IMG/VR virus record: IMGVR_UViG_3300046167_000453
Span: 7,694-71,693 of that record
Source: a virus
Reading direction: 5' to 3' (one strand)
Length of the DNA: 64,000 nt
Positions 7,559 through 32,116 of the stretch are shown one piece after another. The position numbers and the translations under genes were made by a program. The notes under the pieces were generated by a model. The model saw only the letters and a program-made list of their open reading frames with translations, ran no database searches and was not told the DNA's origin. Numbering within the stretch: position 1 is the first letter of the stretch; every line of letters begins with the position of its first letter.

Positions 7559-8152
7559 ATGTCTGTATTAGCATTAGATATTGAGACTAAGAATATGTCT
7601 CACGAAATAGGGGGATTTGGTAATACTCATATGTTTCAAGTATCAACAGTGGCAACATGGGATGGGAATACAGGAACAGTCTATGTGGATGAAACCGTTG
7701 ATACTTTCGCAAAAAGCGGCCATGTTATTAAATCACTACAACAGTTAAAGTATGACTTAGACGACCATTTTCAAAAAGGTGGCAAGTTATTAGGACACAA
7801 CATTGTGGCGTTTGATTTGCCTATACTTAGAGACTCTATGGATATTTATTGTATTCACAAGTATTTGAACAACGAACAATACATTGACACAAGTAAAGAA
7901 TTACTTAAGGGTCATGGTGAAAGATTTCAACTCAAAAACTTAGTTAAATGCACTATGGATGACTCAAAGTTAATGGATAGTGCAGATGCACCTAAGTTAT
8001 GGAAAATGGGAAAATATGATGAAGTAGTAGAGTATTGCATGAAAGACACACAGTTAGTATATGACTTGTGGGGATATGGAAAAGAGAATGGTATTGTAAA
8101 AGCCTTCTCTATTGAAAAAGAAGAATTTATAGATTTAGGAGTTGATTGGTAA
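7559..8152 (+). CDS. DEDD / RNase H-fold 3'-5' exonuclease
   Basis: ALDIET, GHNIVAFDLP, YCMKDT (Exo I/II/III). Confidence 0.85.
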   Translation: MSVLALDIETKNMSHEIGGFGNTHMFQVSTVATWDGNTGTVYVDETVDTFAKSGHVIKSLQQLKYDLDDHFQKGGKLLGHNIVAFDLPILRDSMDIYCIHKYLNNEQYIDTSKELLKGHGERFQLKNLVKCTMDDSKLMDSADAPKLWKMGKYDEVVEYCMKDTQLVYDLWGYGKENGIVKAFSIEKEEFIDLGVDW

Positions 8153-8307
8153 TGTCCACAGCAGAATGGTTTGGCCTATTTATTTTCTTGATAGTAGTTT
8201 CGCTATTATTCTTTGCAGCGTTTGGTGGTTCTAATATCACTGAACACAGCGTAGATGAATACATTAAGCGACTACTTGGGGATAATAACGAAGGCGAGCA
8301 AAAATGA
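8152..8307 (+). CDS. 51-aa membrane protein
   Basis: Hand-translated MSTAEWFGLFIFLIVVSLLFFAAFGG...; TAATG coupling. Confidence 0.6.
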   Translation: MSTAEWFGLFIFLIVVSLLFFAAFGGSNITEHSVDEYIKRLLGDNNEGEQK

Positions 8308-27546: not shown

Positions 27547-29484
27547 TTATGCCAATGAGTTTTCTAAAGTTTTAAATGCTCTTTTAGTTGAGTCTATAAA
27601 TGATTTTGCTGATTTAATATCGCCGCTATCGTATCTTTGTCCATAAGTAGACCTTTGTTTATCTTTAGTGTCAAGTCCAATATTTGCGGCTTTTGTTTCT
27701 ATTCTATGAGTAGCATTGACTAATGAAGGAGATTGAAAAGTATAAGTAGTTGTCGCCTTTATATCCTGTTTATCCATTATGTCATTTCCCTTTTCGTCTT
27801 TCTTTCCAGTTTTATATTTTACATATTTAGTTATAATTTTTTCTATTATTATTTCTATTTCGTATAAAGCCCCATAGTCTCTAAGGGCTTCTGAAAAAGT
27901 AGATTTGATATACGGTTTCAACTTCATTTTAAATGCTTCTTTTGCATCTTTATTGGTAAAGGCAGTCGAAGTAACAGTAACATTAGTTTTTTCTTTTAAA
28001 TCTTCTAGTTTTGCTTGCACATATTCCTTCATTGGGTCAGTAATAGTATCTTTACGCCATTCTTTAAGTTTTCCTATTTCTAATTTCAGCCATGATTTGA
28101 GGCGTTTTACCTCCTTAATATATGTTTTATAAAAGGCTTTACCTTTTTTCTTAGAATCGCTTAACGCTTTAATTCTTTTTACTACTTTTTTCATCTCGGT
28201 ATCAATAATCGAATTAAGAAGAGTTATTTTTTTCCCATCTACTATTCCTATATAATTAATACGATTAAAATTAGGAAGAATGTATTCTCCCCTACTGACT
28301 ATTTTTTTTCTTGTGCCTTTTGGTTTTTCAATTGTCTTTTTTTCACCAGTTTTAGTTTTATAAGTAACTTTATTTTCTGTCCATTTTGGATTTTTGGGTT
28401 TTCCGTATGGAGAGAAGAATTGATTTATTATTTTTTGTTCTTCTTCAGTATATTGAGTTTCAAATTTATCTGCTGTTTGTATTTTTCCAACCATTAATTC
28501 GGCATCTATCGTTTCTATTTTATTAGAATATGACATAATGTATGAAGATATTATGTCATTTACTCCAGAGTTGGTTAAAGTGGTAAATTTTGTAGTATCG
28601 AGAGACAATCCACCGCTAAACTTACCACTTAACGCTTCTTTATTTGCAGTTTTGTTTAAAAATTGAGTTTCAAATATAGCGGAGGTTTGATTTCCAGAAT
28701 TATAATTTTCAGAAGTTAAAGAACCCCCCGATATTTCCTGTCCTCTATAACTATCTTCTTTTTTATCTTTAGCAGAAGTAGTTGTAATACCACCTCTTCC
28801 TTTTCTTTTAATAGAACGAGATTCCATCAAAGAAATAGGGGCATATCCTAATTCTTTAAGGTAAGCAATCTTGCTATTAGGCATAGGATTTTCAGGATTA
28901 TTAAAATCTATTTCTTTAAATCTTATAGAGCGTAACTCCACAATAGTTCTTTTTCCCTTCTTTCCCTTCCTTTCATCTGGGCCTACAACATTTAATTTAG
29001 TGCTACGCCCTTTTTCTTTACCGATATATTTTGTATATTCATCGAATTTTTTATCGGGCATACCTTTTCTTTTTTCTTCTCTTGCTTTTTTATTAGTATC
29101 AGGATTATTTAAAGTAAGAGAAAGGTTACTATTTAAATCTTTAACAGTAAATTTTTCTTTAGTGTTTTTTAGACGCTCTAAGGCTTTTTTTCCAGAAGGG
29201 CTTAATTCTATATTGTGAGTAGTAATCAATTCTTGAATAGGGGTGTTTTCTATCGAAGTTATTGCAGAATTATATACTTTAATGTATTGGTTTTTAATTT
29301 TACCTTCCCAATTCATTATATTAACTTGTTCCATTTCATCTAAAGATAAATCTCTCGCTATTTTTCTATGTGACTTATCTTTATTTGCTAAATACCCACT
29401 AAGTAAAAACAGAACCATTTCTTTTTCAATAGTTATTTTATCTAAAGAAATTTCTTGGCCCGTTCTTGAGTATTTGATTTGCAA
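27547..29484 (-). CDS. Large Lys-rich hypothetical protein
   Basis: 645-aa ORF. Confidence 0.65.
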   Translation of the reverse strand: MQIKYSRTGQEISLDKITIEKEMVLFLLSGYLANKDKSHRKIARDLSLDEMEQVNIMNWEGKIKNQYIKVYNSAITSIENTPIQELITTHNIELSPSGKKALERLKNTKEKFTVKDLNSNLSLTLNNPDTNKKAREEKRKGMPDKKFDEYTKYIGKEKGRSTKLNVVGPDERKGKKGKRTIVELRSIRFKEIDFNNPENPMPNSKIAYLKELGYAPISLMESRSIKRKGRGGITTTSAKDKKEDSYRGQEISGGSLTSENYNSGNQTSAIFETQFLNKTANKEALSGKFSGGLSLDTTKFTTLTNSGVNDIISSYIMSYSNKIETIDAELMVGKIQTADKFETQYTEEEQKIINQFFSPYGKPKNPKWTENKVTYKTKTGEKKTIEKPKGTRKKIVSRGEYILPNFNRINYIGIVDGKKITLLNSIIDTEMKKVVKRIKALSDSKKKGKAFYKTYIKEVKRLKSWLKLEIGKLKEWRKDTITDPMKEYVQAKLEDLKEKTNVTVTSTAFTNKDAKEAFKMKLKPYIKSTFSEALRDYGALYEIEIIIEKIITKYVKYKTGKKDEKGNDIMDKQDIKATTTYTFQSPSLVNATHRIETKAANIGLDTKDKQRSTYGQRYDSGDIKSAKSFIDSTKRAFKTLENSLA

Positions 29485-29495
29485 AGTTAATCAAC

Positions 29496-30161
29496 TCACA
29501 TTAACCATTTAGCCCAAGCCGCACCTTTTTGAATGGCTGAACCTAAATGTAATCCACTTGAAGGAGGTTCATAACTCATTTGATTTTGGGCATCAATCCA
29601 ATATGGCCTTCCATATCCGTCTGTTCCCGATGGAGGAATAGGATAGCCCGAACCATTATTCACAGCACCCTGCATTTGTTGATATTGTTGCGTTTGTCCC
29701 GTCAATCCGGCTACTGCCATACCTGCTGTTGGCCCTGCGGGGTTCATTCCTCCCATGTTTCCACTACCTCCGAATCCTTGAGATTCGAGATATTGTTGCT
29801 TCGCAAGTTTGCGTTGATTTACTACTTCTGAGTTAATTGCCGATTGAAGAATCCTTTGAATATCTAAGTCAATATTTTCTTGAGTAATTCTTTCATACTC
29901 TCTCATAGCATCAGCATCAATGCTTATTTTTGAACCAGTAGTAGTAAAAGATAATTTTGCTAGCATTTGGCTAACTACTCTCTCTACTACATCTTCCATT
30001 AATTTTTCAAATGTGCTTAAAAATTGCTCACCATGATATTGAAAAAATTCTTCTACATGGTTGTCTTGTAAAGAAAGTAAGTTATTTACATTCTTAAATT
30101 GTTGGTCGTTTTGTGCGTGAACTGCACCCATTACTGCTTTGTTACTTGTTCCAAATACCAT
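29496..30161 (-). CDS. Helical protein with a Gly/Gln/Pro-rich tail (GTPase operon)
   Basis: ORF track; C-terminal amphipathic GAAWAKWLM. Confidence 0.7.
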   Translation of the reverse strand: MVFGTSNKAVMGAVHAQNDQQFKNVNNLLSLQDNHVEEFFQYHGEQFLSTFEKLMEDVVERVVSQMLAKLSFTTTGSKISIDADAMREYERITQENIDLDIQRILQSAINSEVVNQRKLAKQQYLESQGFGGSGNMGGMNPAGPTAGMAVAGLTGQTQQYQQMQGAVNNGSGYPIPPSGTDGYGRPYWIDAQNQMSYEPPSSGLHLGSAIQKGAAWAKWLM

Positions 30162-30163
30162 GA

Positions 30164-30792
30164 TTATTCCTCTCCTTTGTTATTAGTTACCATTGATTGT
30201 AGTCTTTTGGTATTAGTTTCTATCTCGGCTATTAGCCGAATTACTTCCGCCATCTCGCTCTCATTATCCTTGACAACGGGGGGCGTTATAATCCATCCGG
30301 TTGATGTCAGCGACAAGACATCATCTCTCGATAAAGTCTTCAATGGGCCACCCTTTAGCATTTGTGGCACTTTAGGTCTAGGAATGAATGCTTTAAAATC
30401 TAATCCATGTTCGTCTGCTAAAATCTGTTGCTGTAACATCTCCATCTGTTTATGAATATTTGCGTGTTTAGGGCAATAAGTTCCTCTTAAGGGTCTTCCC
30501 TTAGTGACATTATCTAAAGGAATAGGAGGGCGCATATAATCACCCGATTCCCAAATGTGGTGCATTCCACAAACCACACACCTATCCTTGAGATTAAACT
30601 TATATCCATACTTAATAATGAATTTTTTCTTCTCCGGCAAAAGAACTTTTTGATTTCTTTTAATTGCTTCTTAGGTTTTAATGCCGTAAAAGTATATTCT
30701 TCGATAGAACCCGCACTCCTAAACTGTTGTAGTTTAGGTAAAAATAAATTCTTTGTTTGCGGGCTGTTTATTAAATTCGGTTGTTGATACAT
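30164..30792 (-). CDS. Zn-finger protein with C-terminal coiled coil (GTPase operon; one indel near 30650)
   Basis: CVVCG...YCPKH; ORF 30514-30792 joins 30164-30640 if one A is restored. Confidence 0.65.
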
Positions 30793-30801
30793 GTTAATTC
30801 C

Positions 30802-31470
30802 TCAGTAATCTTTTATTAGCGTAGTAATTCCTTTATAGACCATTTCGGGGTCAGACTTTGCCGATACTATATATTTGAATGTTGGTATTCCTTTATCATT
30901 TAATTGTCGCATACCATACTTAAACGGTTCATAAATATCGTGCTTGTCAATTGATTGCCCTTCTCTTAATGGATATTTGTCTCCCCATATGTCATACTTA
31001 TTTGCCCAAATACTTACAGCCATAGGGTAATCTGCTTCTTTTTTTCTTTTTCCATTCGGCCAAATATTAGAGGTAATTGTATCTACTAAAAATTTCCATG
31101 CTAATTGATGGTCTAAGTTAGATGTTGAATCCAAATGCCTATGGTCTATCATAAAAATAATATATTTAACCTTTCTAGATTTCATGTCTTCGACCCATTG
31201 TTTCCAATACATCGCTTCTCCGCCAATATCTGCACTTTTCAATGTATGAGAGTCTCCGTCAAACTTAACTACTTTTCTACTCGCTCTTTCCAAACCAACT
31301 GTTCTTTTATTGATTTGTTGGACTTCGCCTCTTGTTCTTAATTGGTAACTTAATGTTGTTTTACCAACCATAGTAGCACCATAAACTCCAAAATTAATAG
31401 CGTGGACTCTTTTATAAAAAGCCACTACTGCTTCTGTAATTAGAATCGCAAAGCCCGCCATTACTGACAT
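30802..31470 (-). CDS. Arf/Sar-like small GTPase with a hydrophobic N-terminal helix
   Basis: G1 GATMVGKT, G2 RTVG, G3 DIGG, IIFMID, G4 ANKYD, G5 SAK. Confidence 0.88.
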   Translation of the reverse strand: MSVMAGFAILITEAVVAFYKRVHAINFGVYGATMVGKTTLSYQLRTRGEVQQINKRTVGLERASRKVVKFDGDSHTLKSADIGGEAMYWKQWVEDMKSRKVKYIIFMIDHRHLDSTSNLDHQLAWKFLVDTITSNIWPNGKRKKEADYPMAVSIWANKYDIWGDKYPLREGQSIDKHDIYEPFKYGMRQLNDKGIPTFKYIVSAKSDPEMVYKGITTLIKDY

Positions 31471-31692
31471 CTAATGACCCCCAAATACTGACTTAATAGT
31501 TTCAATTATCCAACCCATAATGTTTATGTCAAAAACACCCATTATGTTTCCTATAAGAAACATAGATAAAGTAGCACAAGACCCCCAAAACCACGCTCGC
31601 ATTTTAATAAAAAACAAATCCGCAGAATGCGCTCTTTGTTGATTATATGCGTAGTCGGAGTCGGAGAATCCCATTAAGTCACCAAGAACCAA
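31471..31692 (-). CDS. Small membrane protein (GTPase operon)
   Basis: Hydrophobic C-terminal half; GAGGTGA SD. Confidence 0.7.
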   Translation of the reverse strand: MVLGDLMGFSDSDYAYNQQRAHSADLFFIKMRAWFWGSCATLSMFLIGNIMGVFDINIMGWIIETIKSVFGGH

Positions 31693-31702
31693 CTAATTCA
31701 CC

Positions 31703-32116
31703 TCATGGTTGAAGAGTAGCCAAAAACTCATTAGGCACTTGACTTTCTTCAAACGAAGCGATTTGTGTTTCAGGATAAACATTGTTCCATGAATCCCGCT
31801 TATTAACTCCGTATTGTTTCATACTTTCACGAAGTTTCTGTTTAATTTGTTGTTCTCTAGCAACCCTTTGAAAGTGTGCTTCAATTTGCCTATCTAGCAA
31901 CCTAATCTCAATTCTATCATTAAGAGATAAGTCGAATAGTGCTTTCATAACCATAATGCCACCAACTGTAATCAGCCCAAATAAGACCGAGTGTGCTAAT
32001 GGGCCATAAGGAAAATTAAGACCGTATGCTGAATAGAAATAAACATTTGCCCCACTGACTGTTCCGACAAATAAAATTGTCATAACTAATCGAGTATCGT
32101 TATTTAATGCCGCCAT
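31703..32116 (-). CDS. Two-TM protein with a coiled-coil tail (GTPase operon)
   Basis: Two hydrophobic helices followed by RLLDRQIE...QQIKQKLRE. Confidence 0.7.
   Translation of the reverse strand: MAALNNDTRLVMTILFVGTVSGANVYFYSAYGLNFPYGPLAHSVLFGLITVGGIMVMKALFDLSLNDRIEIRLLDRQIEAHFQRVAREQQIKQKLRESMKQYGVNKRDSWNNVYPETQIASFEESQVPNEFLATLQP

Follow-up and report, generated by a model that had tools for sequence, protein, structure and literature searches.

A conserved gene block around an Arf/Sar/SRbeta-like GTPase, a putative membrane-acting switch in magroviruses

What purpose could an Arf/Sar-like small GTPase serve when it is encoded between the capsid and tail genes of a virus? This question is raised by a 64,000-base stretch (positions 7,694 to 71,693, hereafter the window, whose coordinates are used throughout) of the IMG/VR record IMGVR_UViG_3300046167_000453, a linear virus record of 71,693 bases with an estimated completeness of 77%, in which the GTPase gene stands in a block of five minus-strand genes (29496-32116). 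Among named relatives, the closest to this GTPase is a protein annotated as hypothetical in Poseidoniales virus YSH_150918 (76% identity), which identifies the window as part of a magrovirus, one of the tailed viruses associated with archaea of Marine Group II (Poseidoniales). Our results reveal that the GTPase belongs to the core genes of these viruses and that the block around it is real, beyond chance, being under purifying selection and present in every relative with enough sequence. They further suggest that the cassette is probably a membrane-acting switch, for which a role in virus egress is put forward tentatively.

An earlier sequence-only reading of this DNA had proposed five minus-strand open reading frames (ORFs), all of which exist. 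In the order of the array, the genes of the block are:

31703..32116, minus strand: TMa, 137 amino acids (aa), with two predicted transmembrane (TM) segments (10-28, 43-61) and a charged helical/coiled-coil tail
31471..31692, minus strand: TMb, 73 aa, with one predicted TM segment (45-63)
30802..31470, minus strand: Arf-like small GTPase, 222 aa, with a hydrophobic N-terminal helix (1-19), motifs G1-G5 and a basic loop KRKKE
30164..30792, minus strand: Cys/His protein gene, 209 aa if intact (as in contig L002, 4328-4954), split here
29496..30161, minus strand: LC, 221 aa, with a helical N-terminal part, a Gln/Gly/Met/Pro-rich region (131-200) and a Trp-rich C-terminal helix

The relatives of this block fall into the window's own clade (clade 1, or group 1) and three further virus clades (groups 2, 3 and 4). 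Synteny across magroviruses, which had been named as a check of the initial proposal, held among 80 loci fetched by the capsid protein without regard to the GTPase: TMa, TMb and the GTPase are all present in 44/44 loci with at least 2.7 kb downstream of the capsid gene, and the whole five-gene block in 38/38 loci with at least 4.1 kb. In a GTPase-seeded set of 166 loci, 149 of which contain a complete GTPase ORF, the Cys/His gene follows the GTPase in 70/78, 67/67 and 4/4 of these complete loci (groups 1-3) and the LC gene in 63/78, 67/67 and 4/4, every locus missing either of them having at most 1.7 kb of contig beyond the GTPase. Viral contigs carrying the GTPase number 338, 145 and 4 for three clades, the fourth coming from metagenomes. 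Furthermore, low median pairwise ratios of nonsynonymous to synonymous substitution rates (dN/dS) in clade 1 (TMa 0.10, TMb 0.13, GTPase 0.075, Cys/His 0.15 and LC 0.12; overall range 0.05-0.33) place all five genes under purifying selection.

Motifs, profile and predicted fold agree with the sequence-only reading in assigning 30802-31470 to an Arf/Sar-like small GTPase with a full G1-G5 set. All hallmarks of Ras-superfamily (TRAFAC) small GTPases were found, i.e. the small-GTPase fold and the motifs themselves (G1 GATMVGKT, the switch-I Thr in KRTVG, G3 DIGGE, G4 NKYD and G5 SAK). Residues G31, G36, K37, D81, G84, D109, N157, K158 and W162 are invariant in an alignment of 16 sequences reaching down to 20% identity, D160 is almost invariant across the same relatives, and G4 reads NKYD in 78/78 and NKAD in 71/71 members (three clades). 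In Pfam, the protein scored 17.7 bits for Arf, 17.9 for MMR_HSR1, 16.8 for SRPRB and 16.0 for Ras (E 0.003-0.009), all four falling slightly short of the curated cut-offs (22.3 for Arf, 25 for SRPRB), and its sole NCBIfam match was TIGR00231 small_GTP (19.7 bits for a cut-off of 42.5). Exceeding the cut-off of the Arf model (PF00025) is itself weak evidence of Arf membership, since searches of whole genomes gave matches in 14/14 control prokaryotes, 13 of them above it. A single-sequence phmmer search of PDB sequences returned nothing significant (best E 0.33); the family profile retrieved first 8oun_A, an Asgard ‘GTP-binding protein’ (2.7e-9) whose sister entry 8OUM is titled ‘Arf GTPase from the asgard Gerdarchaea’, followed by Arl3 (2e-8), Arl8 (7e-8) and, just behind, Rab33B and KRas (1e-7). 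The AlphaFold2 (AF2) model (predicted local distance difference test, pLDDT, 85.2) is nearest to Arf/Arl/Sar, SRbeta and Asgard ArfR in the structure ranking, where Ras/Rab/Rho account for 0/50 of the top entries by Z; by Foldseek E-value alone, Rab and Ras tie with Arf. An unrelated P-loop family, the outcome that would have undone the initial assignment, is not where profile and fold group this protein.

Just 66 relatives of this GTPase were recovered by phmmer at E ≤ 0.001 from 1.84 billion representative proteins. A word-indexed search yielded 395 homologues at E ≤ 1e-3, the best 120 at 69-92% identity, and some homologues bear the JGI pipeline label ‘GTPase SAR1 family protein’. Distant relatives recovered by phmmer include P0160 (2.8e-9) and P0176 (5e-6), both with Arf as best Pfam family (27.2 and 57.2 bits), the only ones passing among 10 distant relatives; P0215, from a ‘Euryarchaeota archaeon’ metagenome-assembled genome (MAG), shares 53% identity with P0176 and can be aligned with the window GTPase at 4e-15. 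P0133, P0184 and P0215 are absent from the IMG/VR search results. A scan of 185,579 species genomes gave a single match, in a 12.2-kb contig (NZMJ01000024.1) of a Maricaulis MAG, whose GTPase is 78% identical to the window's and which is most likely a magrovirus contig mis-binned into this alphaproteobacterial MAG.

Is this protein an Arf? According to one study, DxGG (Gly at the third G3 position) is an Arf-specific feature, and the Arf feature list includes Leu-Asp at G1 positions 2-3, i.e. G-L-D-x-x-GKT (PMC11914678). The window GTPase has the former (DIGG; P0143 and P0160 have DVPG instead) and misses the latter, its G1 reading G-A-T-M-V-G-K-T. It is ~17-21% identical to Arf1/Arf6, Arl1/2/3/6/8 and Asgard ArfR (GerdArfR1 8OUM, HodArfR1 8OUK; 8OUN), and it differs further from Arf by a Glu in place of the catalytic Gln, a uniformly hydrophobic N-terminal helix, ~40 extra residues including the basic loop, and its encoding by a virus. 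SRbeta is also distinct, given the SRPRB score of 16.8 for a cut-off of 25, no SRalpha-like partner and the viral context. Because the Pfam cut-off is missed, the G1 Leu-Asp is lacking, Glu replaces Gln and PF00025 is unspecific, we do not call the protein an Arf; the comparisons point to a new, apparently virus-restricted family that is Arf/Sar/SRbeta-like rather than Arf proper. The view that a eukaryote-like GTPase outside Asgard archaea would be special in itself does not stand: the nearest non-viral neighbours in the ESM Atlas are bacterial clusters with the Arf Pfam family, and ArvA of Euryarchaeota and DPANN is Arf-like by HHpred (PMC10927574).

How might such a GTPase be tied to a membrane? 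Residues 1-19 have a Kyte-Doolittle mean (KD19) of 1.86, an Eisenberg mean hydrophobicity <H> of 0.69 and a hydrophobic moment of 0.19, and AF2 places a helix at residues 3-22. The N-terminal helix that had been likened to that of Arf is hydrophobic, as described, but not amphipathic; uniformly hydrophobic, it looks like an anchor of the TM-spanning or deeply buried type rather than the amphipathic Arf helix. SRbeta has a comparable membrane anchor. In addition, a basic loop that Arf lacks (NGKRKKEADYP, window 31045-31078; GTPase residues 131-152) precedes strand 5 and is basic in all clades (e.g. RARLRARKYAP, RWRGKRYKP, RKMKKKGKSYKP), so that it may form a lipid- or partner-binding surface.

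The two genes preceding the GTPase fit the description of a 2-TM plus coiled-coil protein and a small TM protein, the KD19 peaks being in agreement. After its TM segments, the tail of TMa comprises 30% charged residues, and the stop codon of TMb abuts the GTPase start codon. At E ≤ 0.1, TMa matches no Pfam family; TMb matches no Pfam or PHROG family.

The same arrangement recurs well beyond the window's clade. In clades 2-4, whose GTPases are 27-33% identical to that of the window, the order is again a 2-TM/coiled-coil protein, a small TM protein, the GTPase, the Cys/His protein and a Gln/Gly/Met-rich protein, and a further 2-TM protein usually comes after the block. Alignment of clade 1 with clade 2 by hhalign gave 99.9% for the GTPase, 96.8% for the Cys/His protein and 60% for LC (60-97.4% for LC between clades overall); between clades 2 and 4 every component is homologous at 97-99.9% (Cys/His 99.9%). 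Mismatched-pair controls were mostly at or below 1.1%, with clade-1 TMb against clade-2 TMa (7.2%) as the exception, and at or below 0.9% in a second set. The clade-3 LC homologue also matches 57 clade-1 LC proteins (BLASTP, E ≤ 1e-5). The GTPase, Cys/His and LC proteins are thus homologous across at least four virus clades. A protein of TMa-like architecture occupies the equivalent position in the other clades, its hhalign value to TMa being only 3.9-8.8%.

The surroundings differ: clade 2 has a protein of 941-2363 aa and an HNH-like gene, clade 3 a GroEL-type chaperonin gene just upstream of the cassette (L164:4820-6478; phrog_5725, 4.2e-49). Since it is kept together amid such different neighbours, the block behaves as a unit. 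Its placement inside the head module, as initially described, applies to clade 1, where it lies between head and tail genes, and not to the other clades, with their giant protein, HNH-like or GroEL genes. Clade 4 possesses a seven-gene variant of the cassette, with an extra ~250-aa protein between TMb and the GTPase (L171:6237-6995, L183:6195-6995, L195:6238-6984). This protein comprises a ~130-aa globular N-terminal part, after which comes a long tail, rich in Asp and Glu, that closes with (I/V)T(D)WD.

Downstream of the GTPase, the Cys/His gene forms in relatives a single ORF of 209-225 aa starting 9 nucleotides (nt) past the GTPase stop, and its start codon in the window is the ATG at 30792. 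The sequence-only reading had recognised here a Zn-finger protein encoded by 30164-30640; the Cys/His ligands are indeed present in clade 1, but the gene really extends over 30164-30792 and is split, and the ligands are lost in one clade. Compared with the near-identical contig L002, the window record is short of one G beside 30646, in the run ATCAAAAAG followed by TTC (30640-30650, minus strand). This one-base deletion splits the gene into ORFs 30514-30792 and 30164-30640, breaking the frame after residue 51 and leaving the ligand-bearing part reachable solely from a TTG at 30640. The simpler explanation is that the base was lost in assembly or through a recent mutation. Although a -1 slip on AAA AAG would restore exactly the L002 protein, a programmed frameshift is unlikely, given that L002 carries the additional G and can be read without slippage.

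Ligands C72, C75, C107 and H110 are complete in 40/40 clade-1 members; in clade 2 the second Cys is out of place or lacking (28/40), and clade 4 has Leu or Phe at position 110 in 21/21 members and keeps C107 in 12/21. Zinc binding is plausible for the clade-1 protein from this pattern, and would not be constant across the family. Of the Cys/His proteins scanned, 0/12 match ArfGAP or ArvC/OapC at E ≤ 1, and their family profile matched 0 PDB sequences at E ≤ 1. The AF2 model of the intact protein (L002 copy, 12-row alignment; pLDDT 51.1, predicted template modelling score 0.34) is too poor for a fold reading, and a predicted complex of the GTPase with the Cys/His protein scored 0.00 in two runs whose controls did not fold, a result that speaks neither for nor against binding.

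The last protein of the block, LC, is composed of Q/N/G/M/P/S/A/T to 79% over residues 131-200 and ends in a conserved Trp-rich helix (AIQKGAAWAKWLM). In the ESM Atlas it has one viral cluster only (0.83), to be taken as a lead.

When could this block act? In clade 1, it is embedded in an almost gapless minus-strand gene array running from ~36043 down to 25857, in the order protease, major capsid protein, four small ORFs, the five-gene block and proteins of 645, 373 and 186 aa. Upstream of the block lie the capsid maturation protease (Peptidase_S78, E 6.9e-10, Pfam) and the major capsid protein (SU10_MCP, 8.8e-7, Pfam; PHROG major head protein, 2.5e-21), and the array is followed downstream by a minor tail protein (phrog_290, 1.9e-15), a tail assembly chaperone and a tape-measure-like gene. 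Intergenic gaps, read off the coordinates, are 0-12 nt from the protease through the 186-aa gene. The ‘five-gene operon’ of the sequence-only reading is therefore a tight syntenic block with membrane proteins, but not a separately delimited unit, as these gaps run on past its ends. Packed into a head-to-tail late array without room for a promoter of its own, the block is probably expressed late. RNA libraries provide a weak hint of its transcription, DNA carry-over being possible and depth unable to rank genes: one marine library contains contigs with 0-1 differences over 29440-29844 (LC), 30892-31122 and 31208-31477 (GTPase), together with a contig over 32102-33484, from the TMa start through the small head genes, and three others cover mostly the capsid region. 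The frameshift site at 30646 and most of the Cys/His gene lie outside these contigs.

We propose that the hydrophobic N-terminal helix would tether the GTPase to the cytoplasmic membrane of the host, as an SRbeta-like anchor in clade 1, and that the GTPase would alternate between its GTP- and GDP-bound forms and, acting with TMa and TMb, would control or execute a membrane event. The Cys/His and Gln/Gly-rich proteins would serve it as regulator, effector or scaffold. As expression of the block is probably late, opening or reshaping of the membrane for release would be its most likely job, in which holin-like small TM proteins might do the damage and the GTPase might act as timer or organiser. 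The parts of this proposal differ in strength. We consider it probable that the GTPase cassette is a membrane-acting switch, whereas its role in egress is a tentative suggestion. The combined statement, that of a membrane-anchored GTP switch cassette expressed late and opening or reshaping the host membrane for release, we regard as close to balanced, leaning slightly towards doubt. Its most explicit version, a magrovirus release machine in which an anchored Arf-type switch organises holin-like proteins and a Gln/Gly-rich scaffold for a breach or a bud, is doubtful as a whole.

Several observations weigh against this proposal. None of the cassette proteins is connected by homology with lysis, egress or vesicle formation: TMa and TMb match no holin family of PHROG or Pfam at E ≤ 0.1, and the PHROG matches of the block at E ≤ 0.1 are to families of unknown function, plus a ‘virion structural protein’ for LC (E 0.012). 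No homology of TMa and TMb between clade 1 and the others could be demonstrated (hhalign 2-15%; 2-4% for clade 2), and in clades 2 and 3 the hydrophobicity of the N-terminal helix is no more than moderate (KD ~0.9), so that a membrane anchor is not family-wide. As the other clades have no recognisable head genes beside the block, late timing applies to clade 1 only. At the position following DxGG, where Arf has its catalytic Gln, 78/78 clade-1 members carry Glu and the other clades Q/E/D/H, which makes the hydrolysis mechanism uncertain. A tblastn search with two of the GTPases against 50,697 GenBank phage and archaeal-virus records, a set that may lack records close to the window, found no relative; cultured tailed archaeal viruses, which lyse their hosts too, thus manage without it. 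Finally, the Cys/His frame is split in the window record itself.

A likeness to phage holin cassettes lies in the small 1-2 TM proteins with charged tails in a late region, and is one of architecture only; unlike them, the viral block has neither a holin family match nor an endolysin. For the latter, Phage_lysozyme and Amidase_2 gave no match in the virus record, a weak negative since the same search missed the GTPase with PF00025 at E ≤ 1. An endolysin is not to be expected where the host has no murein. To our knowledge, no lysis cassette contains a small GTPase, and we know of no established exit route for tailed archaeal viruses, the hosts here being uncultured. ArvABC, the Asgard Arfs and holin-type proteins have no homology link to the cassette beyond the GTPase fold.

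Could the cassette serve virion morphogenesis or entry rather than release? It might then be a membrane-bound assembly platform, or a channel carried by the particle for the next host, with the GTPase as an assembly checkpoint. The position of the clade-1 block between the capsid and small head genes and the neck and tail genes would fit such a role, as would the ‘virion structural protein’ match of LC and a baseplate gp6 domain in 3/12 Cys/His proteins (best E 0.0039), but these two matches are below significance, and in the other clades the block is not among recognisable structural genes. Moreover, capsids of tailed viruses assemble in the cytoplasm without membranes, and we know of no GTPase that is a component of a tailed-virus particle. 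We therefore hold this alternative to be unlikely.

Another host-membrane purpose (ArvA-like vesicles, a replication or assembly compartment, a division block or superinfection exclusion) appears improbable to a similar degree. It draws on the parallel with ArvA-ArvB-ArvC (OapABC) of Haloferax, where an Arf-like GTPase with an N-terminal hydrophobic/amphipathic helix stands beside a Cys-rich (Zn-ribbon) protein and the system drives vesicle formation (PMC10927574), as the Cys/His protein follows directly on the GTPase in the viral block. In addition, Asgard Arfs that possess an N-terminal helix associate with membranes in dependence on GTP, and one of them expands membranes like those of the endoplasmic reticulum in yeast (PMC11914678). 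ArvABC is the sole non-Asgard archaeal precedent for the proposed function, its GTPase and the viral one being likened by description, not by sequence. Against this, OapB (PF09846) and OapC (PF09845) were not found in the 71.7-kb record, in a search of low sensitivity that also missed the GTPase, and 0/12 Cys/His proteins match OapC at E ≤ 1; the TM proteins and the Gln/Gly-rich protein occur only in the viral block.

A soluble switch directed at translation, DNA packaging or a host GTPase pathway, with the TM genes as mere neighbours, is very unlikely: it can invoke MMR_HSR1 (ribosome-associated GTPases) at a similar E (0.0036), the moderate hydrophobicity of the helix in clades 2 and 3 and the low specificity of PF00025 (14/14 control genomes), but the GTPase has TM genes beside it in each of the four clades, however varied the surroundings, the TMb stop codon abuts the GTPase start and the fold ranking favours the membrane-linked Arf, SRbeta and ArfR.

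Under the preferred reading of a membrane-acting switch, the five-gene core block around a membrane-linked GTP switch offers a concrete gene set for expression tests. The block also shows that prokaryotic viruses have taken switches of the Arf type into their service, which bears on the pre-eukaryotic spread of membrane-remodelling GTPases; if a role in release were true, GTPase-controlled egress would be new for tailed archaeal viruses, without counterpart in the lysis cassettes of bacteriophages. A related claim exists, of Asgard mobile elements encoding Arf GTPases (PMC11529989). The searchable main text of the literature on magroviruses and archaeal tailed viruses contains no mention of a GTPase; supplementary annotation tables may list the gene.

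Immediately after the cassette, 27547-29484 encodes a Lys-rich protein of 645 aa, with no Pfam or PHROG match at E ≤ 0.1. It was detected by tblastn in just 13/80 close relatives, indicating a fast-diverging protein. Within the cassette itself, two loci display inserted ORFs on one or the other side of the GTPase, towards TMb or towards the Cys/His gene (L060:7666-7965, 99 aa; L080:6459-6995, 178 aa, and 7660-8235, 191 aa). Two of these start with a motif of the MWF(N/D)I(I/L)K type, and they look like small mobile or accessory genes.

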